A DNA stretch of 64,000 nt, taken from NCBI GenBank assembly GCA_963793265.1, contig CAWBZI010000001.1:352001-416000 (forward strand), given 5' to 3'. The notes beneath the pieces are model-generated. The model worked only from the letters and a program-made list of their open reading frames with translations. It was not told the DNA's origin and did not search any database. Positions 6,424 through 35,502 of this stretch are shown piece after piece. The position numbers and the translations under genes are program-made. The first letter of the stretch is position 1. The number at the start of each line of letters is the position of its first letter. This DNA is from an uncultured cyanobacterium (GTDB lineage Bacteria > Cyanobacteriota > Cyanobacteriia > Phormidesmidales > Phormidesmidaceae).

Positions 6424-6543
6424 AGCAAAAGTCAACTTAATTGTGTGAACATAGCTGCTTCAGCAGTACGTGTTGAAACAAAACAATACCCGCAAAGACT
6501 GTAAGCCTAGCGAGGATCGTAAAATCAATGATTTACTTATCGA

Positions 6544-6591
6544 AGCTGGTGATCCGACTCGAACGGACGACCGGCTGATCACAAATCAGTT
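6544..6591 (-). tRNA. tRNA-Thr(UGU) 3' fragment (truncated, att-site-like, not a functional tRNA)
   Basis: Minus strand AACTGATTTGTGATCAGCCGGTCGTCCGTTCGAGTCGGATCACCAGCT has the anticodon arm (TGT), T arm (GTTCGAG) and 3' acceptor strand. No D arm or 5' acceptor strand precedes it. Confidence 0.8.
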
Positions 6592-6658
6592 AGTCTAGTT
6601 CCCGAAAACCCTTACGGCATATGGGTTTAGAGAGGTGCAAGTTTTTGATTTTTAGTCC

Positions 6659-6680
6659 GTACCCCAATCTGTACCCCAAT
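6659..6680. repeat. Direct repeat GTACCCCAAT x2 (integrase arm-type-site-like)
   Basis: Copies at 6659-6668 and 6671-6680, about 70 bp from the tRNA fragment; AAACCC...GGGTTT dyad in between. Confidence 0.6.
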
Positions 6681-7190
6681 AATGAATCTTGATAGTCCTG
6701 TGCGCTCAGCTGCTCTACATCTTTGTATGCTTTCTCTAAGCAATGTTGGGCTGTATAGTTCAAACGTGGTTGCTTAGGTGGACTCGTAGAAGATCAGCAG
6801 CGAGAAGCTTTCGACACCCCGCTTGATAAGCAATGTAAGAGCAAGTTGGCCGAAGCAGATACACAGGAACTAAAATCTTTAATGCAGCTCTACCGTCGCG
6901 GTATACTTCACGGAGCAAAGACTTCTCAAGTCGCTGTTCAGCGCAGCTTTGTGGCTCCTTTAAATGTACGTGAGCCAATTATCTGTAGAAGTATATAGTG
7001 CAGTTGAGTAAAGCAGCGACATGTCCTCGAAAGCCTGCCAGTGAAAGAGTGGAATGGCAATCACCATGCCTCGATAAATGCCCTGCAGTTCCTCAACGAC
7101 ATAGAAATTAAGGGTGTTTGCTTTCCCAGCAGCCTGTCGCGCGTACTCTACGAGAAGGCAAAGCCTACGAATCGCGTTACCCGCTTCTCT
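6680..7190 (-). pseudogene. Possible heavily degraded tyrosine recombinase
   Basis: Fragments in shifting frames (GKANTL..ELQ..DMSLLYSTALYT; LLRPTC..YQAG; ATTFELYS) loosely follow integrase motif order; catalytic residues are not intact. Confidence 0.3.
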
Positions 7191-8800
7191 TAACACCGAA
7201 TGTTCAACACTTCTCGCAATCGCATCTGGTCGTCACCTTTGATTTTGAAGCGACCTCTTTCTACGTCTCGAATCCAACTCTGGCTTTTACCTAGTCGCTC
7301 GGCTAGGGCTCGCTGACTCAGTTTTTGCTGCTGGCGCGCAGCATTAATCTCATGTCCCGAAAGTTCTTGCTTCTCCTTTGCTACGGCCCAGCGTTTAGAC
7401 TTCTGACGACTTTTTTTCGGCTTGCGCCGCCGAACATTTCCCTGCCATTCATCGGAGAGTTCAAAGCCCAAAATACGCGCATTGAGCAGGCGCTGCCACT
7501 TATCTCTGGGGGCACTATCGGTAAGGCCGTTGTCTCGGGTGGCATCTTCAATCCAAAAATCAAGCGCATCATCAACATCATCAGGAATTTCGGTTACTTT
7601 AAACCAAAACGGCTGAATATCGGCGGGATAGGTGACGGGATCAAACAGTGGTTTGAGTCCGTAGTGATAGAGCGTTTCGAGATCGCTCTCGAATGTTTTG
7701 AGCAGCCGTTTATGAGCGCCTCGCACGGTTCTCGCTTGTTGCAGCCGAGCTTTCCCATAAGCAATTTCCAGGAGCGTGCTCACTTTCAAGCGCTGGTCGC
7801 CTCCAAGCCTAAGCTTAAACAAATTCCATAACAACAACCGAATGGCTCCCTCATGTTGTTGCCAGTTATTCATGACTTCTTTGATCAGCGATTGGGGTAG
7901 GACACCGTACTGATAAAAGGCCGTTTGGGCGCGATATTCATGCTTGTTGAGAAAGTGCTTGGCCCACAGACCCGATTGAATAGTGAAGCCTAGACCAATT
8001 AGATGTTGAGTCCCTTGAGCGCCTTCGTCAAAGTAGTATTGCGTGTCGAGTAGCTGCCAAACAGGATGTTCGTCTAAGCTAAACGCATTGACTTTTCCCT
8101 GTCTGGGCCAGTCCAGAGAAACCAGGATTTGGCAGGATTGGTAAACCAGATTTTTGATCAGCGTAAGCTTCTCTAATTTGCTTAGGTCTTTGCGCTTATC
8201 GAGCCCTAAATATTTTTCAATGTGCTGATCGTTAATTACAAAAGATTGTTGCCAGGGGTGCTCAAGGGTCATCGCATGCGCTGCAAAGATGAGATGAACG
8301 CAGGCGGCGCGAATATCGAACTGGGCGATCGCCTTACTTGCCTGATCTACCGGCATGGGGACATCCTCATCGGCTTCAGGATCTGCTGCTAATCGAAACC
8401 GTATTTCACCTCTATTGCGATTTACAGACCGTCGATAACAGAGCTGACCGTCAGCATCAGGTTGCCAGGGTAGCGCTTCTCGCTGGGACAGAACGTTACA
8501 GGTCTCCCACATCACCATGCAAGAGGCAAAAGGGGAGGTTTTTTGATTGATGAAGATACTAGGAATGGCGACCGGTAGCAGCGTGCTTTTACAGCGACCT
8601 TTTTTGGGCTGTAGGGGCACCAGTGCATCGACCTCACAAGTCTGTATGCACAGGGGTACTGCTAGATCTGGGCAACCATCGCACAGCGTCGGATCGATCC
8701 AGTAAGTACCTTGCTTTTCGTCAGGCTTAATAGCTCCATTGGGGCATTGAGCCTGACAAACATTGCAGGAAATACAGTTATCCTTAACGGTGTAAGTCAT
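7190..8800 (-). CDS. cnfR: CnfR/PatB nif transcriptional activator (copy A)
   Basis: N-terminal 2x[4Fe-4S] motif (CISCNVCQAQCP..CDGC..CIQTC) and C-terminal XRE HTH (SQRALAERLGKSQSWIRDVE). Confidence 0.9.
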   Translation of the reverse strand: MTYTVKDNCISCNVCQAQCPNGAIKPDEKQGTYWIDPTLCDGCPDLAVPLCIQTCEVDALVPLQPKKGRCKSTLLPVAIPSIFINQKTSPFASCMVMWETCNVLSQREALPWQPDADGQLCYRRSVNRNRGEIRFRLAADPEADEDVPMPVDQASKAIAQFDIRAACVHLIFAAHAMTLEHPWQQSFVINDQHIEKYLGLDKRKDLSKLEKLTLIKNLVYQSCQILVSLDWPRQGKVNAFSLDEHPVWQLLDTQYYFDEGAQGTQHLIGLGFTIQSGLWAKHFLNKHEYRAQTAFYQYGVLPQSLIKEVMNNWQQHEGAIRLLLWNLFKLRLGGDQRLKVSTLLEIAYGKARLQQARTVRGAHKRLLKTFESDLETLYHYGLKPLFDPVTYPADIQPFWFKVTEIPDDVDDALDFWIEDATRDNGLTDSAPRDKWQRLLNARILGFELSDEWQGNVRRRKPKKSRQKSKRWAVAKEKQELSGHEINAARQQQKLSQRALAERLGKSQSWIRDVERGRFKIKGDDQMRLREVLNIRC

Positions 8801-11174: not shown

Positions 11175-12800
11175 TTAAATGTTCAATGCCTGCTGTATGA
11201 GCTGACAATCTTTAGCGTTCAGGCTAAACCTTTCCTTCTCGACATCGCGAATCCAGCTTTGGCTTTTACCGATACGATTGGCTAAGGCACGTTGACTCAG
11301 CTTGTTTTGCTGACGCGCTGCTTTAATGGTATCGCCAGAGAGTAAAGGGGACGATGCTCTGGTAGGAGAAGAAGATCTTTTGGTACGAGACTTCGTGCTA
11401 GCCTGGCTGCTGCGGCGCTTAGAACCGCTACGATGCATCACCTGCTGCCAATCTGCGGAAAGTTCGAACCCTTGCAACCGGGCATTGAGCAAGCGCTGCC
11501 ATTTATCTCTAGGTGCATTGTCCATCAGCGATCGGTTCGCCTGGTCAGACCAAAAGTCTATTGCTTCATCAACATCATCTGGAATTAGACAAGCCTTGGC
11601 CCATAGCGGCTGAATATCGAGTGGGTATGTTTCAGGATCGAAGATGGGTTTTAGACCATGATGGTAGATAGCTTCTAGATCGCCTTCAAATGTTTTGAGC
11701 AGTCGCTTGTGTGCGCCTCTTACCGTTGTCGCTTCTAACAACCGAGCCTCGCCGTAAGCAACGCGCAGTAGGGTACGTATCGTCAGACGATGATCGCCGC
11801 CTAGCCGCAGCTTGAACAGCAGCCAGAGGAGAAGCCGAGCAGCGCCTTCATGCTGTTGCCAGTTGCTCATGACTTCTGCGATTAGCGCATGCGGCAAGCT
11901 GCCATATTGAAAAAAGGCGGTTTGATGGCGGTAGTCTTGTCGATTGAGAAAGTGCTTTGCCCACTGACCCGGTCGCAGGGTGAAGCTCATGCCAATCAGG
12001 TGCTGACAGCCCTGCGCGTCTTCTTCAAAATAGTATTGTGTATGTAGCAGATTCCAAATGGGTTGTTCTTCTAGCGCGAATTCTCGAACCTTTCCTTGGC
12101 GGGGCCAATCGAGCGATACCAGGAGCCGAGTGCACTGATACACTAGCGACTTTACTAAGGTAAGCTTCTGTAGTTTGGTGAGATCTTTGCGCTTGTCGAG
12201 ACCCAGATACTTTTCGATATGCTGATCGTTTATTTCAAAGGGGTCTTCCCACGGGCATTCCAACGTTATTGCATAGGCGGCGAAAATGAGATGGACGCAG
12301 GCCGCGCGAATGTCGAACTGGGCGATCGCCTCGCGAGCTGCTTCTGCTGACATGGGCATAAGCGCATTCAATTCGGGATCGGTGGCCAGGCGAAACCGCA
12401 TTTCTCCCCGGTTGTGGTTGACGGAGCGACGGTAGCAAAGCTTACCTGTAGCATCACTTTTCCAGGGCAGTAGGTGTCGCTGAGATAGCACCGTACAAGC
12501 TTCCCAAATCACCATTGAGGAGGCGAAAGGCGTTGTTTTACCATTGATAAAGATACTGGGAATTGCAGGCGGAAGAAGCGTACTTTTGCAGCGTCCTTTC
12601 TTCGCCTGGAGCGGCGTTAAATTGTCTCTATCGTCACAGACTGCCACGCATCGGGGAACGTCTACATCGGGGCAGCTATTGCAAAGGGTCGGATCGATCC
12701 AATACCCTTCGCGCTCGTTCGAAGGCTTAATAGCACCGCTTAAGCACTGAGGGTGACAGCTATCGCAGTCATGGCAACCCTCCTTGATGGTGTAAACCAT
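11175..12800 (-). CDS. cnfR: CnfR/PatB nif transcriptional activator (copy B)
   Basis: CHDCDSCHPQC..CNSC..CVAVC ferredoxin motif and XRE HTH (KSQSWIRDVE); colinear with copy A. Confidence 0.9.
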   Translation of the reverse strand: MVYTIKEGCHDCDSCHPQCLSGAIKPSNEREGYWIDPTLCNSCPDVDVPRCVAVCDDRDNLTPLQAKKGRCKSTLLPPAIPSIFINGKTTPFASSMVIWEACTVLSQRHLLPWKSDATGKLCYRRSVNHNRGEMRFRLATDPELNALMPMSAEAAREAIAQFDIRAACVHLIFAAYAITLECPWEDPFEINDQHIEKYLGLDKRKDLTKLQKLTLVKSLVYQCTRLLVSLDWPRQGKVREFALEEQPIWNLLHTQYYFEEDAQGCQHLIGMSFTLRPGQWAKHFLNRQDYRHQTAFFQYGSLPHALIAEVMSNWQQHEGAARLLLWLLFKLRLGGDHRLTIRTLLRVAYGEARLLEATTVRGAHKRLLKTFEGDLEAIYHHGLKPIFDPETYPLDIQPLWAKACLIPDDVDEAIDFWSDQANRSLMDNAPRDKWQRLLNARLQGFELSADWQQVMHRSGSKRRSSQASTKSRTKRSSSPTRASSPLLSGDTIKAARQQNKLSQRALANRIGKSQSWIRDVEKERFSLNAKDCQLIQQALNI

Positions 12801-13693: not shown

Positions 13694-14425
13694 TTAGAGA
13701 GTCGTTTGAGAAAAGTGTTTTGCCAGTAAAGCAGGCACATCTCTAGGGTTAATTCCGTTGTAGCGATGCCCTCCGGGCATGATGGTTAGCCCAGGGGCTT
13801 TTGAACATTGTTTTTGACAGCCAGTATATTGAATCTCAACGGCGTTTTCTAACTGCTGCGCTCGTAGCGTTCTCTCTAAAGCTTCTACCAACTGCCTGCC
13901 GCCTCGTTTTTTACAGCCAGACTTGTGACAAACCATAACTTTGCCTTTGGGTTTGTCTGTTAGCCTATCTGTTAGCCTAATGGGCTCGATTAAAGCATGA
14001 GCATGCGTAAAGAGACAGTAGGCTTTGAGCTGAATGACGCCTGCCGAGAAATCGAGCTGACTGCGACCGATACATCGCACGCGATCGCCTAGCTGCAAAG
14101 TTCGCCGCCGCACCGCTTGCTTGATCGCGTTGCTCAAGTTATTAGGAAGCTCTATGGCCATCTTCTCTCGATCGATCTCTAAGACAATGGCACTTACGTT
14201 TTCTGGTGGTTCGCCGAGTAGACCCAGAAAGACACCTTCCTCGTTAAATATCCAGGGCATGAGCGGCTTGTTGTTTAACTCAGCGTCTAATGCAATATCT
14301 GATACGACTTCTGGCAAAGCGTCTATGGTGCTGGGGGATGTCTTTAATTTCGCACTTGGGTTAATACTCTTCATGGGCTTGGCCCTCCTAGGGGTTCCTA
14401 ATGGCTGTAGAGCATGGGCTAACAA
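13694..14425 (-). CDS. Thioredoxin-like (2Fe-2S) ferredoxin domain protein
   Basis: C-terminal VCHKSGC...GCQKQCSKAP; alternative start 14374. Confidence 0.85.
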   Translation of the reverse strand: MLAHALQPLGTPRRAKPMKSINPSAKLKTSPSTIDALPEVVSDIALDAELNNKPLMPWIFNEEGVFLGLLGEPPENVSAIVLEIDREKMAIELPNNLSNAIKQAVRRRTLQLGDRVRCIGRSQLDFSAGVIQLKAYCLFTHAHALIEPIRLTDRLTDKPKGKVMVCHKSGCKKRGGRQLVEALERTLRAQQLENAVEIQYTGCQKQCSKAPGLTIMPGGHRYNGINPRDVPALLAKHFSQTTL

Positions 14426-14432
14426 AAGCTGG

Positions 14433-14636
14433 CTAGTTTACGCGTCTAGCTCGAATGGTTTGAGGGGTTTCGATTGGATCGGTTAAACCTTCCACGCGTA
14501 GATCCCAGCCGTTGTCTAACGTGAGAATTTGAGCACCTTCAGTATCGGTTTGTTTAATGACTTCTTGCTCTAAGTCTTTTTTGGCAACGTAAACCATTAG
14601 TTTTCCAGCGCGGTCGGTATGCAGCATAATTTTCAT
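14433..14636 (-). CDS. nifT: NifT/FixU
   Basis: MKIML...VYVAKKDLEQEV...LDNGW. Confidence 0.92.
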   Translation of the reverse strand: MKIMLHTDRAGKLMVYVAKKDLEQEVIKQTDTEGAQILTLDNGWDLRVEGLTDPIETPQTIRARRVN

Positions 14637-14678
14637 GGGGCGTTCCTTGTGAGGGTTTCTTTTCTGAGAGGCTTTCAC

Positions 14679-15812
14679 TCAAGATCTTTTGGCAGCGATC
14701 GCCAGTAGTTCATCTAACGTAAGGCTGCGCTTAAGCTGAGTGGCTAAGTCGCGCACTTCGTTCAGCACGGACTGACTATTAGCCCCTGCGGTCGCCAGTC
14801 CGTGACTGTTCAAAAACTGATCTACCGAATGACGACCCGAGTGTTTGCCCATGGGTAGCTGCCGCTGCCAGCCGACGTCTTCTGGGTCAAAAGGCTCATA
14901 AGTACTTGGGTTTGCCAGCACCCCATGAGCATGTATGCCAGACTCATGGGCAAAAGCGTTGTTGCCTACAATCGCTTTCCAGGGAGGAACCGGGCAGTTC
15001 ACAGCTTTGGCAACTGAGCGAGAGAGTTCTAACAAGTGCTGAGTTTGAATGCCCGTTTTAAGACTGTAGATTTGCTTGAGCGCCATGACGACTTCTTCTA
15101 AGGCGGCATTCCCAGCACGTTCTCCTAACCCGTTGACGGTCGTGTTAATAGACGTTGCACCCGCTCGCACGCCAGCGATCGCATTTGCTGTCGCTAGACC
15201 CAAATCGTTATGCGTGTGCATCTCTACCGGAATCTCTAATGCGGCGACCAGCTTTTTGACCTTTTCAAATGTCGTAAAGGGGTCGAGAATGCCCACCGTG
15301 TCACAAAAGCGAAAGCGAAACGCGCCCCACTCTTGAGCAAACTGGGCCGCATCGATCAAGAACTGTTCGTCAGCGCGAGCGCTATCTTCGCCGCCTACGC
15401 TGATCTCCAACCCGTGGTCAAGAGAGAAGTTTATACAGTCTCGCAGCTGTTGCAGCATGGCATGCCAGCGCCCCTGAAATTTGACCTGAATCTGGATCTC
15501 AGATAAGGGGATAGAGATATGTACCCGTTTTAGGCCGCAGTGAATAGACGCTTGAATATCCGAGATGACGGCCCGGTTCCATCCCAAGATGGAGGCATTG
15601 AGGCCAAGGTCGGCGATCGCTCGAATAGATTGGGCTTCTTCTTGTCCCATAGCAGGAATGCCCACTTCTAGTTCCTGTACGCCGATAGCGTCGAGAAATT
15701 TTGCGATCGCAACTTTCTCTTCTAGCCCAAAGGCGACGCCCGCAGCCTGTTCGCCATCTCGTAGGGTCGTATCGTTAATGTAAACGTTGTCAACAAACAT
15801 CTGGTCGGCCAT
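14679..15812 (-). CDS. nifV: Homocitrate synthase
   Basis: [32 protein letters not shown]; nif context. Confidence 0.95.
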
Positions 15813-15945
15813 CTGATGGGTTCCTAGTTGGGCGCGTCAACAATAAGAAAAACAAAGCTGAGAAGAACAAAGCTGAGAAAAACAAGACTCCCCTTTGAAT
15901 AAAAGGGGTGAATAAAAAGGGGAGCAAGTGAGGCAATCGGCTTAG

Positions 15946-16503
15946 CTACTTCAAGAAGGCAAAGGTGAGACTGTCTTCAGACAAAAAGTGATCTAGATGG
16001 AAGGCTCTATCTTCTGTCTCTAGCAGAATTTGCTCGTAGAGATAGCGAGTAGCGCGATCGCCCACGCTTTCTGCCTGCGTAGACAGCCGACGCAACAGAG
16101 AGATAACAGCCTGTTCAGCGACCAGATCGTTTTCAATCATCTGCCGACAAACGTAAGCGCCATCAGGCTCCATCTCAAAGCAGCATAGATCTGCTAGCGT
16201 TGCGAAAGACCCAGCCGGAATGCCCCCTAGCCCATTTAACCGTTCAGCCAGGTCATGGGCATGGCCTTGGGTTGTACCATAGCTCTCTTGAAAAAACTCG
16301 TGAATGGAATAAAATTCGGCCCCCTCAGTGACAAAGTGTTGCTTTTGATACTGTAGATATAGACCTTGAAAACTAGCGTAGGCCAGGTTTAGCCCTTCGC
16401 AGACGGGGATGGTGACGTCTCTTTCAAAGCCGACGGGGTTGGGGCCAACGTCGCCAAATGCGCGAACCAGCGTTTGAACAGATTGAACCGTTTGAGTAGT
16501 CAT
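15946..16503 (-). CDS. dpsA: Dps/ferritin-like protein
   Basis: [41 protein letters not shown]. Confidence 0.88.
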
Positions 16504-16694
16504 AGGGTTTATTTCTCGCAAGTAAAAGATGAGTAGCGTTAAAATGAACAGATTAAGGTAAGTGCTTTGAGATGAACTGTTTCAATGAACACTTTTCTAT
16601 GAAAAAATCTCTTAAAAAAGTGTTTTTAGCAGGCCATCTCAGGCGAACGATTTAAAGGAAACAAGCTGCAAAGAACACTATTTAAAGGCGAGAT

Positions 16695-16976
16695 TCAGGG
16701 TACGGCAGGAACCGCAGCCTGAGTTTCCCAGCAGCGCTCTAGCCAGGCGGCACTAGCCTGACGCGGTAGCGTGAATCTTCGTACCACGCTGTTGACCAGC
16801 AAGAGGGCAATCGCGTGGTTAACTTCGACTCTTAGGGTGCCATCGATTGGGCAGGCACAGGGCACATTGAGTTCTTGCAAGCGGAGATTGATCGACCAGC
16901 GATCGCTTCGCGAGACTGAGACAATTTTCCCCTCTGTAGAGACAGTCGAAGGAACGGCAGAGGTAGACTTATCCAT
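16695..16976 (-). CDS. Asr1405/Asl0597 family protein
   Basis: [16 protein letters not shown]...WLERCW. Confidence 0.8.
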
Positions 16977-17733
16977 AGGATTGATACTCCAAAGTTGATA
17001 GAGGTGGACGAGTAAACTTTTTGAGACTTTGTAGCTGGCCTTCTAGTCGTTCGATGCGAGACAGGAGGCGCTGTAGCGTGACGGCTTCAATATCAGGTAG
17101 GTGAGAGTGTTCTAGGGGATTAAGGGCCGTATTGCACTCGCAGACATTGCGACTGGGAATGCCAACGGCGGTGCAGTCAACGGGCACATTTTTTAAAACA
17201 ACAGAACCGGCACCAATGCGGGCGCGATCGCCAATATGAATGTTGCCGAGGACTTTTGCGCCCGAGCCGATGACCACTCGGCTGCCTACGGTAGGATGGC
17301 ATTTGCCACTCTCTTTGCCCGTGCCGCCTAGCGTTACACCCTGATAAATCAGCGTGTAGTCGCCCACGATAGCCGTTTCACCAATTACAACGCCCATACC
17401 ATGATCGATAAAAACGCCTGCGCCTAGCTGAGCGCTGGGATGAATTTCGATACCTGTGAAGCAGCGGGCGAGGTGAGAGATGAAGCGAGGGAAGAAGGGA
17501 ACGGCTTGGTGGTGAAGCCAGTGGGCTAGGCGATGAGCTGCGATCGCGTGGAGCCCTGGATAGCAAAGTAGGACTTCTAACCCACTTCGTGCAGCCGGGT
17601 CTCGCTCAAAGATAATTGAAAAGTCTTTCCAGAGAGGGCACTGCTGCACCCTGAGACATACCTGAAGGAGAAGCTGAGGACAGGGGTAGTGCCTGGGAAA
17701 TCTCTTAAGGATGCTTTGAAGAGAGAGTAACAT
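16969..17733 (-). CDS. cysE: Serine O-acetyltransferase (NifP/CysE)
   Basis: [40 protein letters not shown]. Confidence 0.95.
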
Positions 17734-17770
17734 GGCACGCGGTGGGGCTGGGGTGTCTTTGTTTGTCTGT

Positions 17771-18033
17771 TTATAGCAACCGCGTTTTGTAGGGGCGATC
17801 GCAACCGCCCAATCCAGATTTACTAGAACTATTAATCTTGTACTCAGAGCGTGAAGCGCCCCGTCTGTAGGAATCTTGGAAAACTTATAGGCTGGGGAAC
17901 GAGTATTTCGGCTTACAGGCGCAGGTATTTCAAACGGTAGGGACAGGTATTGTGTACTCAGGGCGAAAGCGGCTGCCTGCGGTGACTAGAGAGAGATTTG
18001 CCTGGGATGACAAAAGACGTCCAACTGTACTCA
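17771..18033 (-). promoter_or_regulatory. nifP promoter: TGAGTACA array and extended -10 (CnfR-type)
   Basis: TGTACTCA at 17839, 17953 and 18026; inverted CGAGTAT at 17900; TTGCTATAA on minus at 17779-17771. Confidence 0.75.
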
Positions 18034-18161
18034 CCGCTAAGCTTTTTGAGGGGCGCATCCATATTTCTGTTGAACAAACCGTAACAGAGGATGCAAAACG
18101 CTGGATGTTTTTTGAAAAAACTCAACAATATTCGCAGATTTCATGACATGAGACTTTTTAC

Positions 18162-19403
18162 TCATGGTTGCGGTAATGACTGCTCGCGTTTGAGCCAACA
18201 GCTCGCGGCGATGATGCCGAAAACTGCCAGGAGTGCCATGGGATAAAACGCATAGGTGTATGAGCCGAACCAGTCGCGAATTTGGCCTGTTGTTAGCGTC
18301 CCTAGCAAGGCCCCGGTTCCATAAGCTGTGAAGACCAGCCCATAGTTTTGCGCGTAGTGTTCGGGGTCGAAGAACTGGAGGGTGATGGTGGGGGCGATCG
18401 CTAGCCAGCCGCCTAAGCAAAACCAGAATAAACAAAAGGAGAATAGATAAGTGGTGACCTGGCCAGCCTGCGCATTGGCCATTAAGAGACTGGCAATCAG
18501 AATTAGCACGTAGGTAGAGATAGCGACGTATTGGGGTTTGAAGCGATCGCTCAGCCAGCCAAAGAGCGGGCGGCTAATGCCGTTGAATAGCGCAAAGAGG
18601 GAGACGCTGCTGGCAGCTAGTCCAGGGTTAATTTTGATAATCTCTTCTCCTACAGGACTCGAAATGCCGATGGCGCTTAGCCCAATTAGCGTACCGACTG
18701 CGTAGCATAGCCAGAGGCCGTAGAAAGAACGGCTAGAGAGCAGCTTTTTCGGATAGGGTTTAATCCGGGCGGCCTGCGCCTGGCGGGAGATCTTGCGTGG
18801 GGGCTGCCAGTCTTCGGGGGGGAACTTGAGCGTAAGGGCGATCGCCGGAATGATGAGTGCGAAGGCAATCCCTAAAATTCGCAGCGTTGTTCTGACACCA
18901 TAGGTACCCATAAGGCTGTTGGAGAGCGGCGCAGTGATTAAAGGGGAAAGCCCAAAGCCAACAATTGTGAGCCCTACCGCCAATCCTTTTTTGTCGGGGA
19001 ACCACTTGGCGACGACAGCCATAGGGACGCCGTAAGCGATGCCGACGCCAGTGCCAGCGACTACGCCATATGTGAGCATCAGCGTCAGAATATTCGTTGA
19101 GAAGCTAGCGAGAATATAGCCGAGTCCGACCAGGCTACCCCCAACAGCAGCCACTGTTCTAGGCCCGATTCGAGTAATGTAAAACCCTGCAATGGGCATC
19201 AGCGAGGCGTAAAAGAACAGTGAAAGCGTGTAGGGCAGTAAACTCTCTGTTGCACCGATACTCAGTTCGCTCTCCAGCGACTTTCTAAAAACACTCCAAG
19301 AATAAACGCTTCCCAAACAGAGAAGTACGCTCATGCCCAATAAAATCAACAGCCATCTTCCTTGAGCTGCTGGCAGTCCGAATACTTTGAGATCTGAAGA
19401 CAT
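18162..19403 (-). CDS. MFS transporter, OFA (oxalate/formate antiporter, monocarboxylate) family
   Basis: LGSVYSWSVF, KWFPDKKGLAVG, FNGISRPLFGWLSDR, QNYGLVFTAYG. Confidence 0.85.
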   Translation of the reverse strand: MSSDLKVFGLPAAQGRWLLILLGMSVLLCLGSVYSWSVFRKSLESELSIGATESLLPYTLSLFFYASLMPIAGFYITRIGPRTVAAVGGSLVGLGYILASFSTNILTLMLTYGVVAGTGVGIAYGVPMAVVAKWFPDKKGLAVGLTIVGFGLSPLITAPLSNSLMGTYGVRTTLRILGIAFALIIPAIALTLKFPPEDWQPPRKISRQAQAARIKPYPKKLLSSRSFYGLWLCYAVGTLIGLSAIGISSPVGEEIIKINPGLAASSVSLFALFNGISRPLFGWLSDRFKPQYVAISTYVLILIASLLMANAQAGQVTTYLFSFCLFWFCLGGWLAIAPTITLQFFDPEHYAQNYGLVFTAYGTGALLGTLTTGQIRDWFGSYTYAFYPMALLAVFGIIAASCWLKREQSLPQP

Positions 19404-19473
19404 CGTAAGTCCTAACGATAGAGCAACATCAAAAAAATCTAAGTCATAGCCATGTCGGTGCGACACCGCTGTT

Positions 19474-20022
19474 TTACAGGCCAAAATTCTCACGATAGAA
19501 AGGCACTTGCTTTAGTCGTTCGTAGTTTTGCGAAATAAACAACTCCATATCCGCTAGCATACGCCCCACCAAGTTCACCAGCGAATCGCTGGCCTGGTAA
19601 GGATAGACTTTTACAAATCGAGGCAGCATTTGACGAAAAACACTGTGATACGGAAAGTCGGCTTTAGGTAGCTCGCAAACTAAAGCTGCTCTGTCGCAAA
19701 CCGCAAGGGGCAGACGCTGAGCGCTTCTAACTTCAAATGAAATGGGAACAGCCGGTGCTATCCGTGGGCTGACGCTGAAAGGAGAGTCTTTGGGAAAGAT
19801 CAATCCGATTTCAAGACTATCAAAGTGAGCCACTATCTTTTGATCGTAAATCAACCAGCCTTGAGGTTGATATCTTCTTTGAGGAACCGTTACTGCCGCT
19901 GAGAATATCCATCGCTGGGCTTGTCTGCTTGTGGTCAACACCGCGATTTGAAACTGATTGAGGTCGGCGATCGCCACTTCATCAAACAGAGACTCTGGTT
20001 CTTGATCGGAAAAACTAACCAT
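19474..20022 (-). CDS. Hypothetical protein
   Basis: 182-aa ORF, ATG preceded by GAGG; family not recognised. Confidence 0.65.
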   Translation of the reverse strand: MVSFSDQEPESLFDEVAIADLNQFQIAVLTTSRQAQRWIFSAAVTVPQRRYQPQGWLIYDQKIVAHFDSLEIGLIFPKDSPFSVSPRIAPAVPISFEVRSAQRLPLAVCDRAALVCELPKADFPYHSVFRQMLPRFVKVYPYQASDSLVNLVGRMLADMELFISQNYERLKQVPFYRENFGL

Positions 20023-20134
20023 ACCGCAACCTCACTTTGTCTAATCCGTCGCTTCAGTGAGATGGTTTGGGGCAGAGGTTTTCACATTATTTAACGCAAA
20101 AAAGTAAATTCTGTCACCTAAAAAAACTCACTAT

Positions 20135-20148
20135 GTTATCGACGATAC
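20135..20148 (-). promoter_or_regulatory. NtcA-like site upstream of the hypothetical-OFA unit
   Basis: Minus strand tGTATCGTCGATAACa (GTA-N8-AAC), with CAGAAT 21 nt downstream. Confidence 0.5.
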
Positions 20149-20215
20149 AGACACCAACAACAGCTCGTTGGGTCACCTCTATATTATGTATCCAATTTAG
20201 CAAAATGAGCACTAT

Positions 20216-20478
20216 TGAGTACTCGCTAACAGCGCTCTATTGAACGGAGTAAATAGCCCATAACCCTCTCTGTGAGGGCAATTCAGTTGAGTACAGCAAT
20301 TATCGGACGGGGCCGTCAAAATGCTAGCGCTGATGGCATGAAATACTCGTACCCCGATCTCAAAGAAATATTTTTGCCTGAGTTTTCAAGGGTTACCGCT
20401 GCTGAGTACAGGGTTAATCATTCAATAAATCCTACCGGGCTAGCGTTTTGAACTCGTTTTTGGCCCCTTGCTATAACT
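20216..20478 (+). promoter_or_regulatory. nifB promoter: TGAGTAC array and extended -10 (CnfR-type)
   Basis: TGAGTACT 20216, TGAGTACA 20288 and 20403, inverted ATACTCG 20343, TTGCTATAACT 20468. Confidence 0.75.
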
Positions 20479-20996
20479 TTTTCATCGACGAACACCTAAG
20501 ACTTAAAGCCTTGAGACTTCAAGTTATTGAGCCAATCGGTGAAGTCAACCAAAAGCGCAACGTCAACCTTAGCTCAGTTAGAGCGTTTTCATCTTCTCGA
20601 CGCTTTGCCTTTTGTTTTCAACGATTGACCGATGCTAGTAGGTTCATGCGAGTCTAGTTCGATTTCAAGCGTACTCATCCTTGCCGGACTGCCCTGCCCG
20701 TTCTCTTTCTCTTGTATGGCAAATAAGCTAAGCAATGACGTTAGAGAAACCAAGCGCACCGCCGACCCTTGCGCTATCGAAACCGTTCCAAGACTCATTA
20801 GTTTTAGGCTGCTGCGCGATATCTCCTTAGTTCTTGCAACTCCCAAACGGTGTTGTATTACTAAATCCCTGGTAGTGCAACACCGCTTTCTCTCTTTTTG
20901 ACTTTTCGTTTCCACGCTCTCTTTTATCAAGCTTTCCCAAACGCCCTATAAGTTTCTCCTTTCTCTAGCCTTCAAAATCCTTTACCCCTTAAAACA

Positions 20997-22457
20997 ATGA
21001 CGCCTCCGCCAAACACCACCCTTACTGCTGCGCCTAAGACGACGCCCAACAAAAAGTCTGGCGGCTGCGGCTGTAGCTCTAAAAACGAAACTGCAGTTAG
21101 TGATACGCTCAAAGCTCGCATCGAAAACCATCCCTGCTACAGCGAGTCAGCACATCACCACTATGCTCGGATGCACGTTGCGGTGGCTCCGGCCTGCAAC
21201 ATTCAGTGCAACTTCTGCAATCGCAAATACGACTGCGCCAACGAAAGTCGCCCAGGCGTTGTCAGCGAACTGCTTACGCCCGAAGAAGCCGCTCATAAGG
21301 CTCTGGTAGTCGCGGGCAAGATTCCTCAAATGTCTGTTCTAGGCATCGCTGGCCCTGGCGACCCACTCGCAAACCCCGAGAAGACTTTTCGCACCTTTGA
21401 GCTGGTTGCCGAACAGGCCCCAGATATCAAGCTGTGCCTGTCTACGAATGGCCTAATGCTGCCCGACTATGTTGATCGCATTAAAGCGCTCAATGTCGAT
21501 CACGTCACTATCACCATTAATATGGTCGATCCGGCAATTGGCGAAAAAATCTACCCTTGGGTTCACTATCGCCGCAAGCGCTATCGCGGTATCGAAGGCG
21601 TCAAGATACTGCATCAGCGGCAGATGGAAGGTCTAGAGGCGCTGAGAGATGCCGATATCTTGTGCAAAGTGAATTCGGTACTGATTCCCGGCATTAATGA
21701 CGAACATATGCCAGAAGTGAATAAGGCAGTTCGAGAACGCGGCGCATTTTTGCACAATATTATGCCGCTAATTTCTAAGCCTGAGCACGGCACCTACTTT
21801 GGTCTAAACGGACAGCGTGGCCCGACGCCGAAAGAGCTTAAAACGGTTCAAGACGCCTGCGCTGGCAACATGAAGATTATGCGCCACTGCCGTCAGTGCC
21901 GGGCAGATGCGGTGGGCCTGTTGGGTGAAGATCGCAGCCAGGAATTCACCAAAGAGAAGTTTATGGCCATGCCAGTGGGCTACAACGCCGAAAAGCGCGA
22001 AGCCGTTCGCGAAGATATTAAACAGACTGAAGCGGCGATCGCCCAAAAGAAAGCAGCCCTCACCCAAAAAGTGGCGGCTAACCAAGCTGCTCAGACATCC
22101 GCTAGCTCTCCTAAAGTTTTAGTTGCTGTAGCTACAAAGGGTGGCGGCTTAGTCAATCAGCACTTCGGCCATGCCAAAGAGTTCATGATTTACGAAGTAG
22201 ACGCGGCTGAAGCGAAGTTTGTTGGCCATCGCAAAGTTGCCGACTACTGTCAGGGCGGCTATGGAGAAGAGGCTACGCTGACCGGCATTATCGAAACCAT
22301 TGCCGACTGCAAGGCCATTCTCGCATCTAAGGTAGGCCCTTGTCCTGCCAAGGCGCTGCAAAAAGCAGGGCTGTTTGTGGTAGAGGCTTACGACGTGATT
22401 GAAGCCGTCGCCCGAGCGTTCTATGACGAGCACGTTCTGGAGACCGTCTACGTGTAG
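20997..22457 (+). CDS. nifB: FeMo-co biosynthesis radical SAM protein NifB
   Basis: [30 protein letters not shown] and C-terminal NifX-like domain. Confidence 0.98.
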
Positions 22458-22501
22458 AAGCGACTCTATTTCCTCACTCTATATTCAGGGAGACTCAGGC
22501 C

Positions 22502-22909
22502 ATGACCTACGCTATCACCGAAAAATGCATCAGCTGTCAACGCTGCTTACCCGCTTGTCCAACCAACGCAATTGAGCGTGACGGTGACACCTTTCGGATA
22601 AACGCTGACTTATGCAACAACTGCCAGGGTGCTCACAGCGTTCCTCAGTGTTGGGCGGCCTGTCCCACCGATGGAGGCTGCGTGTCTCTATCTAATGCGG
22701 GTAGCTCGTTTACGCTAGGCAAAGCCCTAGAAAATACAACAGATTACTGGAAAGCCTGGCTAGCTGCCTACTCTCAAAGAGTTTCTCAACTGAGAAGCTC
22801 AGCCCAAGCCGACTACTGGCACGACTGGTTCGACAGCTATTCTCAAACGCTGCAACAGCTACAGGATAAAGCTCAAGAAGAGTCTAAAACGCTCCCGCTA
22901 GTCCCCTAA
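22502..22909 (+). CDS. fdxN: 4Fe-4S ferredoxin FdxN
   Basis: CISCQRCLPACP..CNNC..C...CP; lies between nifB and nifS. Confidence 0.9.
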   Translation: MTYAITEKCISCQRCLPACPTNAIERDGDTFRINADLCNNCQGAHSVPQCWAACPTDGGCVSLSNAGSSFTLGKALENTTDYWKAWLAAYSQRVSQLRSSAQADYWHDWFDSYSQTLQQLQDKAQEESKTLPLVP

Positions 22910-22952
22910 CTGCTTACTGTTCACTCTCTTCTCATTCCCTCGGAGACCCAAA

Positions 22953-24173
22953 ATGGTTACTTATTTAGACAACAACGCCACCACCCAAATAGACCCTGTT
23001 GTTTTAGAGGCTATGTTGCCCTATTTGAGTAACCTCTACGGCAACCCGTCTTCTATGCATAGCTTTGGCGGTCAGGTGGGCGCAGCCGTTCAAAATGCTA
23101 GGGCTCAAGTGGCTGAACTCTTAGGTGCAGAAAATACCGAGATTATCTTCAATAGCTGCGGCAGCGAAGGTAACAACACCGCGATTCATGCCGCCCTTGC
23201 CGCCCAGCCTGACAAGCGTCACATCGTTACCACAGCGGTGGAACATCCTGCCATTCTCAATGTGTGCAAGCATCTAGAGAAAAAAGGCTACACGGTGACG
23301 TATCTGTCGGTTGATGGCCGCGGACAGCTCGATCTGATGGAGGTCGAGGCAGCGGTCACGGGGGGCACCGCGTTAGTCACGACGATGTATGCCAACAATG
23401 AAACCGGGGTGATTTTTCCGGTAGAAGAGATTGGCGCGATCGCCAAAGAATGCGGCGCAACGTTCCATGTTGATGCGGTACAAGCGGTCGGCAAAATCCC
23501 CATTAACCTCAAAGACAGCACCATCGATTTACTCACGCTATCTGGTCACAAGCTTCATGCTCCCAAGGGCGTTGGCGCGCTGTATGCTCGTCGCGGCTTT
23601 CGCTTTCGCCCGTTTTTGCTAGGCGGGCACCAGGAGCGCGGCAGACGCGCAGGGACTTCTAATGTCGCTAGCATTGTCGCGCTTGGTAAGGCTGCCGAAA
23701 TTGCCGGACAACAGTTGCAGGCGATCACCCAACTAGGCAACCCCCTCGCCAGCAACCCAGAAGCGCAGCTACGAAACCAGCTAGAGCAACAGCTTTTAGC
23801 CCTCATCCCGGACTGCGAAGTGAACGGCGGCGGCACGACTCGACTGCCCAATACGACCAACATCGGCTTCAAATATATCGAAGGCGAGGCCATCTTATTC
23901 ATGCTCGACAAGCACGGCATCTGCGCCTCCTCTGGCTCTGCCTGCACGTCAGGATCGCTCGATCCTTCACACGTGCTCACCGCCATGGGCCTGCCTTATA
24001 CCATTCTCCACGGCTCCATTCGCTTTAGCCTCTCTCGTTTTACCACCGAGGCCGATATTCAGCAGGTCATTGACGTTATGCCGACGATTGTTGAAAAACT
24101 GCGGGCCATGTCTCCTTTCAACAACGACCAGTCCGACTGGCTCCAAAGCCGGGATTTGGTTCACACGACCTAA
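22953..24173 (+). CDS. nifS: Cysteine desulfurase NifS
   Basis: [22 protein letters not shown]. Confidence 0.97.
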
Positions 24174-24222
24174 GCTTTCTTCTTGCCTCTTTCTCCATTC
24201 TTCATTCACCCTTGTAACTGCC

Positions 24223-25101
24223 ATGTGGGACTATTCTGAAAAAGTACTCGACCTCTTTTATAACCCTGTCAATCAGGGCGCGATCGCAGACCCGAATGAA
24301 CCCGACGTGGCGGTGGTCTACGGTGAAGTGGGCAGCATTGCCTGCGGTGATGCCCTACGGCTCCATCTCAAAATTCAAGAATCGACTGAAACCATTCAAG
24401 ATGCTAGCTTTCAAACCTTTGGCTGCACCAGTGCGATCGCCTCTTCCTCAGCGTTAACTGAAATCATCAAGCAAAAGACGCTAGACGAAGCTCTAAACAT
24501 CAGCAACCATGATATTGCTGACTACTTATGTGGCTTGCCCGAAGCCAAAATGCACTGCTCGGTGATGGGGTAAGAAGCGCTAGAAGCAGCCATTTATAAG
24601 TATCGCGGCATAGAAATAGAACAGCATGACGACGACGATGGCACGCTGATTTGTTCCTGTTACGGCATTTCTGAGCCACGCATTCGCAGGGTGATTATTG
24701 AGAACGATCTCACATCAGTAGAGCAAGTTACCAACTATGTGAAAGCTGGTGGCGGCTGCGGTTCTTGTTTAGCGGGTATTGAAGATTTGCTCTTAGACGT
24801 GCAACAAGAAAAAGCGGCTCTCACAGAGAGAGTCGCCGCAGAAGTAGCTTCAACGTCAACACCGTTAACCCCTATTCAGAAGATTAATCTGATTCAACAG
24901 GTTTTGACCGAAGATGTGCGACCGATTTTACTGGCCGATGGCGGCGATATTGAACTCTATGACGTGAGCGGTGATGTGGTGACCGTATCGCTCAAAGGAG
25001 CCTGTGGCGGCTGCGCTAGTAGCCACGACACGCTGAAAAATTCGATAGAGACTCAGTTGCGATCGCGTATCTCTCCCACCCTCACCGTTGTAGAAGCCTA
25101 A
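24223..25101 (+). pseudogene. nifU: NifU with in-frame TAA at 24571-24573 (pseudogene or sequencing error)
   Basis: MWDYSEKV...[15 protein letters not shown]...ICSCYG...GGGCGSC...GACGGC, all in one frame. Confidence 0.93.
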
Positions 25102-25251
25102 ACGTAGAAGCCTAAACCCATTATCGAGGTATCAGCCCATGGACTTTCTCCATCCCACACCCACCGTTGAACGTTCTCCTCCGAACTCAAGAGAACTGTT
25201 CAATCCACCGTTTAATCCATTACTTTCGCTACCCACTTAGGAGCCTTTTAA

Positions 25252-26133
<882 letters not shown>

Positions 26134-26189
26134 AGCGGCTCTCTCTATCAGCTTTTAGGTCAGTTTTCTTAGCTGCTTTGCTGATTCGG

Positions 26190-26232
26190 ATTGAGATGTA
26201 GCAAACCTACCTTAGTTCTGTTGCATCTCAAT
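26190..26232 (+). terminator. Intercistronic stem-loop nifH-nifD
   Basis: ATTGAGATGTAGCA...TGTTGCATCTCAAT. Confidence 0.55.
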
Positions 26233-26276
26233 TCCACCCATATTTCACTATTCCCTACACTTATTGAGAGGGCATT

Positions 26277-27731
26277 ATGACTACTGTAGAAGACAGAAAA
26301 GACCTCATTAATGAGGTACTAGACGCGTATCCGGCGAAAGGTAAAAAAAGACGCTCCAAGCACCTTGGTGTTAAAGAAGCAGAAGCTTCTGACTGCGGCG
26401 TTAAGTCTAATAAAAAGTCCGTTCCCGGTGTGATGACGACTCGTGGCTGTGCCTATGCTGGCGCGAAAGGGGTAGTTTGGGGGCCGGTGAAAGACATGAT
26501 TCACATCAGCCATGGCCCGGTGGGCTGCGGCTACTATTCCTGGTCAGGGCGGCGTAACTATTACGTGGGTACAACGGGTGTAGATACCTTTGGTACTATG
26601 CAGTTTACCTCTGACTTTCAAGAGCGAGACATTGTTTTTGGTGGAGACAAAAAGCTCGCTAAGCTGATTGATGAGCTTGAAGAACTCTTTCCGCTGAGCC
26701 AAGGCACGACGATTGAATCGGAATGTCCAGTCGGCTTAATTGGAGACGATATTGAAGCCGTCGCTAGAGCGAAGGCTAAAGACACTGGCAAGCCAGTTGT
26801 GCCGGTTCGCTGTGAAGGTTTCCGAGGCGTGTCACAGTCGCTAGGTCACCATATTGCAAACGACACCGTGCGCGACTGGGTGCTGCCCAAAGCTGACGAA
26901 TATCGCAAGCTGCCAGAAGGCTTTGAGCCAGGGCCTTACGATGTCAACATTGTGGGTGACTACAACATTGGTGGTGACGCCTGGCCTAGCCGCAAGCTCA
27001 TGGAAGATATGGGCCTAAGAGTAATCTCTCAGTTCTCTGGAGACGGCTCGTTTAACGAGGTCGTGATGGCTCCTCTAGCCAAACTCAACCTCATTCACTG
27101 CTATCGCTCCATGAATTACATCTGTCGTTTTATGGAAGAGAAGTATGGTATTGGCTGGCTAGAGTACAACTTCTTTGGCCCCTCGCAGATTGCCAAGTCA
27201 CTGCGCAAAATTGCAGCGCAGTTTGACGAGACGATTCAAGCTCAAGCAGAAGAAGTGATTGCAGCTAACCAGGCTCGCATGGACAGCGTTATTGCCAAGT
27301 ATCGTCCTCGCCTAGAGGGCAAAACGGTGATGATGATGGTCGGTGGTTTGCGCCCTCGTCACGTTATCCCAGCCTTTACAGATTTGGGGATGAAAGTGAT
27401 TGGCACAGGCTACGAGTTTGGCCATGCAGATGACTATAAGCGAACGGCTGACTACGTTGAAGAAGGCACGCTAATCTATGACGACGTGAGTGGCTTTGAA
27501 TTTGAAGAGTTTGCTAAAAAGCTGAACCCTGACCTGATTGCGGCTGGCATTAAAGAGAAGTACGTCTTCCAAAAGATGGCACTGCCCTTCCGACAGATGC
27601 ACTCTTGGGATTATTCCGGCCCTTACCACGGCTACGAAGGCTTTGAAGTCTTTGCCCGCGATATGGACTTGGCTATCAACAATCCCACCTGGTCGTTGAT
27701 TAAGACGCCTTGGGAAACAGAAGCCGCTTGA
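26277..27731 (+). CDS. nifD: Nitrogenase MoFe protein alpha chain
   Basis: [28 protein letters not shown]. Confidence 0.99.
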
Positions 27732-27741
27732 AATCCGCAAA

Positions 27742-27771
27742 CAATATAGGGGAGTCTTTGACTCCCTATTG
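27742..27771 (+). terminator. Intercistronic stem-loop nifD-nifK
   Basis: GGGAGTC-TTT-GACTCCC core. Confidence 0.5.
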
Positions 27772-27851
27772 CATCCGCACGCTGCTACACCTGGGGGCTG
27801 AGCGTAGTCAAAGCCCTCTATCCAGAATTTTCTCTCAAAAAGGAGAGCATC

Positions 27852-29459: not shown

Positions 29460-29469
29460 ACCGAAAAGA

Positions 29470-29514
29470 GATAGGGATGGGGAATAGGAAACTGTCTCAT
29501 TCCCCATCCCTATC
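29470..29514 (+). terminator. Perfect 16-bp stem-loop after nifK
   Basis: GATAGGGATGGGGAAT...ATTCCCCATCCCTATC. Confidence 0.7.
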
Positions 29515-29549
29515 CCCTACTTCCTTATTCCCCTCGCCCTCCTCTCCCC

Positions 29550-29843: not shown

Positions 29844-29887
29844 ACGGCGCTTTTCTCTCTTTTCTCCTCACCTGTAGAGTTAGTCTC

Positions 29888-30166: not shown

Positions 30167-30168
30167 CC

Positions 30169-33958: not shown

Positions 33959-33963
33959 TGTAA

Positions 33964-35498: not shown

Positions 35499-35502
35499 AC
35501 TT

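Follow-up and report, generated by a model that had tools for sequence, protein, structure and literature searches.

A nif region in an uncultured Phormidesmidaceae cyanobacterium that most likely forms a decayed, immobilised island integrated at tRNA-Thr(UGU)

Rhizobial symbiosis islands integrate at tRNA genes, as in the case of Mesorhizobium ICEMlSym at tRNA-Phe. The integration sites that elements use within tRNA genes were reportedly grouped into sublocation classes by Williams in 2002, and Tsujimoto et al. are said to have described, in 2014, a CnfR-regulated nif cluster of the Leptolyngbya boryana type in non-heterocystous cyanobacteria.

According to the text available of PMC4174501, the nif island of Pseudomonas stutzeri, which is patchy in the genus, occupies a conserved site between cobS and a glutathione peroxidase gene. 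For cyanobacteria, the accessible parts of the respective sources report a laterally acquired nif cluster in Acaryochloris marina (PMC8949462), a case to which the original prediction for the locus studied here had pointed, a nif 'genomic island' in Vulcanococcus limneticus (PMC5902973), and a mosaic nif distribution (2026 preprint, 10.64898/2026.01.15.699626). The word tRNA is absent from the main text of all three, and 'integrase' is absent from that of the Vulcanococcus article and the preprint and occurs once in that of the Acaryochloris article, unrelated to nif. In the literature examined, as far as the main texts go, lateral transfer of the mosaic cyanobacterial nif genes is inferred from trees, with no vehicle or insertion site defined. 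A full-text search of the main texts of openly available papers did not turn up any cyanobacterial nif region described as flanked by att repeats of a tRNA, and such an island in cyanobacteria is apparently unreported.

Here we analysed a 64,000-nt stretch of DNA (G000:C1:352001-416000, referred to as the window) in the 5.68-Mb genome G000 of an uncultured cyanobacterium. The original prediction held that a degenerate 3' half of tRNA-Thr(UGU), with G37 and an A27-C43 mismatch, lies on the minus strand of the window, that the intact gene would be found on the same strand to the right of position 64000, and that the element to the right of the fragment would include cnfR, nif, mod, and pfl. The fragment, the place of its partner, and the gene content to the right were borne out, down to every difference listed for the fragment. 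Window positions 6544-6590 (-) represent nt 27-73 of tRNA-Thr(UGU), i.e., its 3' part, spanning the anticodon stem-loop with UGU, the variable loop, the T arm, and the 3' strand of the acceptor. Over nt 28-73 the fragment is identical to the intact gene at 45/46 bases (46/47 including the next base); its single mismatch is G37 for A37, and A27 stands in place of G27, opposite C43. ARAGORN predicted 43 tRNAs in the whole genome with a single tRNA-Thr(UGU), located at C1:423805-423877 (-), which is equivalent to window positions 71805-71877 and places it 65.2 kb from the fragment. Used as a BLASTN query against the genome, this intact tRNA matched itself and one long partial copy (358544-358589, E 2e-17), with no second long partial copy anywhere in the 5.68 Mb. 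The tRNA-Thr fragment is thus genuine, far beyond chance. ARAGORN found no tRNA in the window, and Rfam (E<=10) gave only three chance matches in 5500-8000 without reporting the half tRNA; the silence of both is expected because the feature is a half tRNA. The features around the fragment are:

6480..6543 (-), putative native-type 3' flank of tRNA-Thr(UGU) with a decayed terminator-like hairpin, B' side of attR (similarity to congener flanks)
6544..6590 (-), 3' fragment of tRNA-Thr(UGU), nt 27-73, att core and distal direct repeat (identity and E value as above)
6591..6690 (-), conserved element-side P arm of the att site (junction alignment)
6659..6668 (-), arm-type repeat 1, TTGGGGTAC on the tRNA-sense strand (6/6 junctions)
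6671..6680 (-), arm-type repeat 2 (6/6 junctions; the genome has no second tandem pair)
6786..6965 (+), C-terminal remnant of an element-linked hypothetical gene of 122-130 aa (homology to an ORF of locus L014)

In tRNA sense, the order is intact tRNA, 65.2 kb, fragment, and left part of the window, all on the same strand. The fragment being downstream of the intact tRNA in this sense, the bracketed 65.2 kb includes cnfR, nif, mod, and pfl, and nif is therefore located inside the att-bracketed island. As in genomic islands, a repeat of the tRNA 3' part lies in the same orientation at the distal border, downstream of the intact gene, and this order is the one that elements entering the 3' portion of tRNA genes typically produce. 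Further, the sequence at 6480..6543 is ~80-85% similar to that directly 3' of the intact tRNA-Thr(UGU) in the congeners G055, G039, G040, and G016, and likewise to the flank of the fragment found in G055, which indicates that a native-type 3' flank was displaced along with the fragment.

When 46 genomes of the genus were searched by pattern for the tRNA 3' half, four besides G000 turned out to carry additional copies on the same strand. The distance from fragment to intact gene is 17.7 kb in G055 and 6.7 kb in G056; G039 carries two fragments with 20.4 kb between them and its intact gene on a different contig, and in G048 the fragment is at a contig end. In the alignment of the resulting six junctions (G000, G055, G056, two from G039, and G048), tRNA identity begins at nt 28 in five, and in G048, where nt 28 differs, at nt 29. 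On the element side, conservation extends for ~100 nt in the six junctions, after which similarity ends. This P arm (6591..6690) is ~75-83% similar to the same position at the tRNA-Thr fragments of G055, G056, G039 (both copies), and G048, and a similar arm occurs in six metagenome contigs, with similarity again ending beyond it. The best-conserved block is a TTGGGGTAC-N3-TTGGGGTAC tandem, corresponding to the two copies of GTACCCCAAT at 6659-6668 and 6671-6680. A GTACCCCAAT repeat to the right of the fragment had been pointed out originally, and the pair is kept in 6/6 aligned junctions, at a constant distance from the core in all five genomes. The tandem pair occurs once in G000, and the 8-mer TTGGGGTA 104 times on both strands of the 5.68 Mb.

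At its other end, the G000 island differs in that the intact tRNA borders another arm type, common to G056, the inner G039 element, and G042. This P' arm is a 0.9-kb non-coding stretch, ~240 nt of which are 75% similar to the arm at the G056 tRNA; at the homologous place, the motif is present in the degenerate forms TGGGGTT and TGAGGTA. Five to seven copies of the TTGGGGTAC-type motif are present in the P' arms of G010, G039, and the metagenome contig L160. Repeated arm-type motifs in the att arms are another feature shared with genomic islands, and the TTGGGGTA repeats are predicted arm-type binding sites for the N-terminal domain of the integrase.

Besides the arms, the tRNA genes themselves carry a trace of integration. 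At one variable-loop position of G055 and G056, C is found in the intact tRNA and T in the displaced fragment, T being the allele of the sister species G047, G000, and G015. Such a difference is expected if an element copy took the place of the tRNA 3' half, and it would place the crossover 5' of that position, in the region of the anticodon stem-loop. Traces of an element (a fragment, arm repeats, an integrase, or its remnant) are found in 11 of the 21 genus genomes whose tRNA-Thr locus was inspected. Logan contigs of the metagenome runs X1-X4 showed no joints over window positions 5600-25500; the contigs break at the 47-nt repeat and have no bearing on excision.

A tyrosine integrase beside the att site, a further hallmark of such islands, is not found in G000 and is found in congeners. 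In G010, the terminator of the intact tRNA comes first, then five TTGGGGTA copies within 350 nt, then an ORF of 420 aa carrying Arm-DNA-bind_2 and Phage_integrase domains. Directly behind the same tRNA, G055, G040, and G004 retain pieces of this protein, frameshifted or truncated, and contig L160 encodes a 74%-identical integrase contiguous with a P arm, core, and P' arm, an arrangement that may represent either an attP-like layout or a tandem junction. The cognate integrase is absent from the entire G000 genome: PF00589 matched on contig C7 alone, in an unrelated TetR-fused ORF; TBLASTN with the G010 integrase (E<=10) gave chance matches only (E>=2); and no integrase remnant was recovered by TBLASTX against congener loci, including the G055 remnant, at positions 6700-7900 of L001, 3' of the intact tRNA. 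Pfam detected no integrase, excisionase, relaxase, or conjugation gene in the island.

The original prediction of integrase-like fragments at 6680-7190 did not hold. No family was assigned by Pfam (E<=10) to ten stop-to-stop frames in 6590-7290, the TBLASTN search was negative as well, and the only homology is to an ORF that is not an integrase: 6786..6965 (+) shares 52% identity over 60 aa (E 6e-19) with the C-terminal half of an ORF of 130 aa (L014:4125-4514, +) that adjoins the P arm of a G039 element. The identity of an 'integrase ghost' was therefore rejected for this segment. As ~68 N-terminal codons are missing in G000, 6786..6965 is a decayed piece of the element backbone. The 122-130-aa ORF, or part of it, lies beside the P arms of G039 and of 5/6 metagenome loci and, among the loci compared, was found only there. 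The protein has 71 database relatives of ~122 aa, all the named ones being hypothetical, and matches no Pfam or NCBIfam family. Its 122-aa form is predicted to fold helically (pLDDT 86); Foldseek of this model against the PDB returned nothing at E<=0.001, and the top rows, at E ~1, are ribbon-helix-helix repressors or antitoxins over ~40 N-terminal residues, so that a ribbon-helix-helix-like N-terminus is a lead only.

On the upstream side of the tRNA, the genes for a LuxR-type regulator, SAM hydroxide adenosyltransferase, dnaX, and pheT are syntenic in 12/12 relatives, and the downstream side is hypervariable, which is why no unoccupied site was found among these first 12 relatives. One was found in G047 after the genus was ranked by PheT identity. 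G055 and G047 are the closest congeners of G000 by this measure (88% each), and a PheT+DnaX tree places G000 as sister to both with 100% bootstrap. Neither has nifD (98-99% completeness). G047 has one copy of the tRNA, no TTGGGGTA arm motif, and two small ORFs before an ortholog (77% aa, 72% nt), 1.56 kb downstream of the tRNA, of the G000 gene at window -1226..-189, followed by orthologs of further genes of the G000 left flank. A close relative thus has an intact, unoccupied site, as expected for a genomic island, and the synteny comparison with non-diazotrophic relatives proposed at the outset came out in its favour. By this synteny, G000 has ~72 kb extra relative to G047, namely the 65.2 kb bracketed by att sites and 6.5 kb with a G8/PKD protein, a 388-aa protein, fasciclin, and GmrSD_C. 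The G8/PKD protein of the left flank was discarded as a synteny anchor, its family being multi-copy and its identities not exceeding 51%. Neither G047 nor G055 has orthologs of the two-component genes next to the tRNA (best matches 40-47%), and the cargo as a whole is missing from these nearest relatives.

The island contains the following genes, from the fragment towards the tRNA:

7190..8800 (-), cnfR copy A, the first cargo gene (Pfam Fer4_7/Fer4, a 4Fe-4S dicluster domain, and HTH_3)
11175..12800 (-), cnfR copy B (Pfam HTH_3; weak NCBIfam match of the N-terminus to 4Fe-4S ferredoxin)
13694..20930 (-), 2Fe-2S thioredoxin-like protein, nifV, Dps/ferritin, a small ORF, cysE-like gene, MFS, and two unknown genes (Pfam; colinear in G040)
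20997..36537 (+), nifB-fdxN-nifS-nifU-nifH-nifD-nifK, Mo-nitro_C, fused nifEN, nifX, DUF269, nifW, hesA, hesB, and fdxH (Pfam)
24571..24573 (+), in-frame TAA inside nifU (translation)
36921..42287 (+), flavodoxin, methyltransferase, PLP enzyme, modA, and modBC (Pfam)
42348..51759 (mixed), pflA, pflB, and adhE (-), and an ADP-forming acetyl-CoA synthetase-like gene (+) (Pfam)
51787..60446 (mixed), IS-rich part with IS1, split ISAZ013, split Band_7, Fic, WD40/PG-binding, IS5-like, and IS630-like genes (Pfam)
62250..64000 (-), DUF1993, response regulator, and histidine kinase (Pfam)
up to window-equivalent 71804, hybrid kinase, split SBP, and RR-GGDEF (Pfam), then the non-coding P' arm

The gene content is that of a CnfR-type Mo-nitrogenase cluster (cnfR, nifB/S/U/H/D/K/E/N/X/W, hesAB, fdxH, and mod), with the peculiarity of the in-frame TAA in nifU. 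At this position 21 of 22 relatives have Gln and one has Glu, and the metagenome contigs of X2 and X3 read C (CAA), while X1 reads T. A SelO fragment lies between the two cnfR copies, copy A is 81% identical to that of G040, and the genes at 20997..36537 share 74-99% aa identity with those of G039, G013, and G040. The pflA, pflB, adhE, and acetyl-CoA synthetase-like genes are also present in the nif regions of G013 and G039. The island further encodes a TPR protein and includes four IS families. Two other identities were considered and set aside. Pfam scans of the 61 window ORFs and 14 ORFs of L001 found no relaxase, coupling protein, or type IV secretion genes, as an ICE would have, and scans of the window and L001 ORFs found no capsid, portal, terminase, or tail genes, as a prophage would have.

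Among the 46 genus genomes, nifD is present in ten and absent from 36. Instead of the arrangement of G000, the distant congener G013 shows this gene set spread over no more than 85 kb downstream of its tRNA-Thr(UGU), in an order rearranged relative to G000 and with the nif region beginning 5.5 kb downstream of the tRNA; its 99.6 kb contain no degenerate fragment, P arm, or P' arm, and no integrase was detected among 25 ORFs scanned in the gaps between nif genes. The circular permutation between G000 and G013 was not accepted as evidence for a circular intermediate, since in the light of G039 the module is often inverted or translocated internally. In G039, the module lies in the interior of a 337-kb contig. 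The G040 region is colinear with G000 from cnfR-A onward, and its contig starts 166 nt after the cnfR-A stop, with the border beyond the contig. In none of the nine other nifD-positive genomes was nif found between att repeats, most of them being too fragmented to tell.

In the ten genomes that have nif, a concatenation of NifB, S, H, D, K, and EN was compared with PheT+DnaX, a comparison of nif with core-gene trees that had been proposed with the original prediction and that gave incongruent results. Each data set rejected the topology of the other, with AU p 5.5e-44 for the core topology under the nif data and p 2e-62 for the nif topology under the core data; the two best-supported core clades were rejected weakly by the nif data (AU p 0.031), and the best-supported nif clade by the core data (p 0.013). 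Since the core set consists of only two linked genes, this conflict between nif and core trees within the genus is indicative rather than final. The outcomes under which an island would have been doubted, i.e., an intact tRNA far away or on the opposite strand and relatives carrying nif at this locus with congruent trees, are not what we observed, although the distant G013 does have its nif region beside this tRNA, in another gene order and lacking att repeats.

The composition of the island is close to that of the genome. The GC content of the island is 50.2% vs. 50.6% for the genome, its HIP1 density is 0.94 per kb vs. 1.21 genome-wide (2nd percentile of 65-kb windows), with the lowest value (0.38 per kb) in the IS-rich part at 51787..60446, and its tetranucleotide distance is in the 88th-99th percentile. 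From the HIP1 sites, a cyanobacterial donor or an old acquisition had been suggested, and HIP1 density and GC would fit a cyanobacterial, probably congeneric, donor. Outside the compared genus genomes, the nearest NifD sequences are those of other non-heterocystous cyanobacteria (88-91% identity); together with the near-host composition, they would fit either transfer among relatives or an old event. Island genes other than nitrogenase genes are ~70-85% identical (aa) to those of congeners, similar to the divergence of core genes, and thus give no sign of recent transfer.

Taken together, the block is most likely a decayed, immobilised diazotrophy island integrated at tRNA-Thr(UGU). We give a probability of roughly 0.5 to the reading that the 47-nt fragment is the attR core of the 65.2-kb island and that a lambda-type tyrosine integrase, lost in the meantime, inserted the whole island together with nif in a single step. 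Integration would have occurred between attP and attB, with the crossover in the part from the anticodon stem-loop to the variable loop. The element copy would have completed the tRNA, displacing the host's own 3' half and terminator by 65 kb, and the cnfR-nif-mod-pfl/adhE/acs module would have been cargo at the time of integration. The element would now be fixed, with its integrase gone, its P' repeats degenerate, the P-arm-proximal gene truncated, and IS elements inside.

The most serious alternative, possible and to our judgement less probable, is that the att bracket stems from a small element, like the 6.7-kb one of G056, and that the 55-kb diazotrophy module was added inside it later by IS activity or by illegitimate or hot-spot homologous recombination; the repeat would then mark the site, not the vehicle of nif. 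Such a history is compatible with the three islands of the shared P' arm type that were read to both ends (G000, G056, and the inner one of G039), none of which has an integrase and whose cargoes are unrelated, with the four IS families inside the island, and with the presence of the nif module in G013 and G039 in contexts without these arms; also, only ~0.6 and ~0.9 kb remain of the G000 element backbone at its two ends. However, neither an IS nor a repeat is found at the outer borders of the module: cnfR-A directly adjoins what is left of the backbone, and the IS copies lie further in. The nearest relatives lack the non-nif genes next to the tRNA just as they lack nif, and two events are needed where one suffices.

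Several observations stand against integration as a single unit. These are the missing integrase, the unrelated cargoes of islands with the same arm, and the lack of bracketed nif in the other genomes, as well as a composition nearly like that of the host, no sign of recent transfer, and a core tree built from two linked genes.

It is quite improbable that the segment from tRNA to fragment was imported whole from a congener by homologous recombination in conserved flanks, with att sites inherited from the donor. On the upstream side, the stretch from the LuxR-type regulator to dnaX and pheT is indeed conserved in 12/12 relatives, the composition is host-like, and nif and core trees conflict within the genus; but the distal flank past the fragment is not conserved in congeners, so that a second crossover would find hardly any homology there, none of the 46 genomes has the arrangement that a donor would need, and the PheT/DnaX tree groups G000 with G047 and G055 for genes only 3-8 kb away. 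Least credible of all is that nif is ancestral at this tRNA-Thr locus of the genus, was inherited vertically and lost many times, and that the fragment is an unrelated relic, an explanation in line with the G013 nif region 5.5 kb downstream of the same tRNA and with the host-like composition of the island, but disfavoured because a tRNA-integrating element would then have left its fragment between the tRNA and nif rather than beyond nif, and facing also the clean empty site in G047, the 36/46 genomes without nifD (both sister species included), and the conflict of nif with core trees.

A wider and more speculative proposal is that the 55-65-kb module (two cnfR, nif, mod, and pfl/adhE/acs) is cargo of a family of tRNA-Thr(UGU)-specific elements that shuttles nif among marine filamentous cyanobacteria, and that the Arm-DNA-bind_2 integrase of congeners can act on it in trans, both cutting it out and inserting it anew; we consider this unlikely. 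If true, this family would be the first defined vehicle and att system for cyanobacterial nif transfer, and a tool to move a complete, oxygen-compatible nif regulon into a non-diazotrophic cyanobacterium. Both junctions of the nif island are resolved to the base in G000, with arms and motif defined by cross-genome comparison, and the cognate integrase in congeners and a naive attB in the sister species make the transfer hypothesis directly testable. For the engineering of diazotrophy, the island is also a naturally occurring cassette of 55-65 kb that brings along its regulators (cnfR), its metal supply (mod), and genes for fermentative support. Even if it is only a hot-spot fossil, it would be a clean example of accessory metabolism accumulating at one tRNA gene in a genus.

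Among known systems, the G000 island resembles lambda/P4-type (heterobivalent) tyrosine-integrase islands and prophages in the direct repeat of the tRNA 3' part from the anticodon stem, the displaced fragment that keeps its native flank, the arm-type motifs in both arms, the integrase adjoining the reconstituted tRNA in related elements, and the empty site in a sister species. It differs from them in having no integrase or excision function in G000 and in carrying a complete diazotrophy module instead of phage or virulence genes. With rhizobial symbiosis islands it shares a large nif block at the 3' end of a tRNA gene and a short bounding repeat; those islands are ICEs with integrase, relaxase, and type IV secretion, none of which is present in the G000 island, and here the host is a cyanobacterium. 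Its cluster is similar to the L. boryana type in cnfR (ferredoxin-like + HTH), nifB-fdxN-nifSU-nifHDK, nifEN, nifX, nifW, hesAB, fdxH, mod, and the adjoining pfl/adhE/acs genes, and unlike it in its two cnfR separated by a SelO fragment, its fused nifEN, the nonsense codon of its nifU, and its enclosure by att repeats. As far as the available text of the P. stutzeri article describes it, that nif island likewise has a conserved insertion site and a patchy distribution within its genus, with borders at cobS and the glutathione peroxidase gene, whereas in G000 the island is bordered by a tRNA gene and the 3' repeat of that gene, with arms of the integrase type. Similarly, the nif genes of Acaryochloris and Vulcanococcus are patchy within their lineage, conflict with species trees, and have been given the label 'genomic island'; the accessible parts of these articles describe no att sites or vehicle, whereas in G000 the junctions and the cognate integrase family are defined.

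The att site and an integrase lie together in L160, a locus on a 243.8-kb metagenome contig, where positions 3700-6320 contiguously hold the 122-aa hypothetical ORF linked to the P arm (the conserved element-side arm of the att site), the P arm itself, the tRNA 3' half, a terminator, motif copies, and an integrase. The motif copies number five (four of TTGGGGTA and one of ATGGGGTA), and no tRNA 5' half accompanies the 3' half in this interval; the arrangement is one of two things, an element in attP form or a tandem junction. The sole Phage_integrase match in the genome carrying the island falls in a 405-aa open frame on the minus strand of contig C7 (165500-168600), the N-terminus of which resembles a TetR-type HTH; it has no relationship to the tRNA-Thr integrase family (the 420-aa type of congener G010).

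Other tRNA-Thr fragments and gene copies occur in congeners. In G039 (contig C33), two tRNA-Thr fragments bound a 20.4-kb interval (L014 3850 to L015 10332) whose sugar-catabolism cargo consists of PGI, P5C reductase, phosphoketolase, glycogen phosphorylase, histidine phosphatase, pyruvate kinase, and TrkA, together with an ORF that was called PIN-like by eye from its translation only and matched no family in a Pfam scan. No integrase was found between these two fragments. This interval belongs to the same att family as the nif-bearing island and forms a metabolic island. A tandem pair of complete tRNA-Thr(UGU) genes is present in G012 (contig C89; L019 1657-1862), spaced 133 nt start to start with a 60-nt gap, one copy carrying 3 substitutions.

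On the left, 6.5 kb separates the tRNA fragment from the first gene shared with G047, the near relative with an unoccupied site:

Window 1-6543: genes for a G8/PKD/laminin-G protein, a 388-aa unknown protein, a fasciclin, and a GmrSD_C nuclease

The G047 locus also lacks this content, which may have accumulated earlier at the hot spot where the island lies.

The tRNA-proximal third of the island appears to be decaying, as suggested by several genes there that are split into two ORFs, namely an ISAZ013 transposase, a Band_7 protein, and a solute-binding protein (window 52758-54863; L001 3264-4678, right of the window). Within the nif genes, nifU contains an in-frame TAA (window 24571-24573), which may abolish or split NifU. 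This position encodes Gln in 21 of 22 relatives and Glu in the other, and among near-identical metagenome contigs it reads CAA in runs X2 and X3 and TAA in X1, which leaves two origins, a nonsense polymorphism between strains or a mistake in the assembly. The nifU-nifH spacer differs as well, with 28 additional bases (two 14-nt units) at window 25089 in the X1 and X2 contigs relative to the window; this difference upstream of nifH is one of tandem-repeat copy number.

Two further features of the island have counterparts in congeners:

Window 9408-10944: 277-aa ORF matching SelO and a preceding 224-aa ORF without a family, between the two cnfR copies
Window 30169-32979: fused nifE and nifN, a single 936-aa ORF

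The 277-aa ORF matches only positions 1-251 of the 466 in the SelO profile, and the same pair lies between the cnfR copies of G013. The nifEN fusion is likewise present in G039 and G013, with a full-length identity of 86-88%. In the nif region of G013 (contig C11; L029 5137-6234), a ParB_N-domain protein, a pyruvate kinase, and a split isoamylase are encoded between cnfR-A and an acs-like gene, an interval that corresponds in position to both ends of the island.
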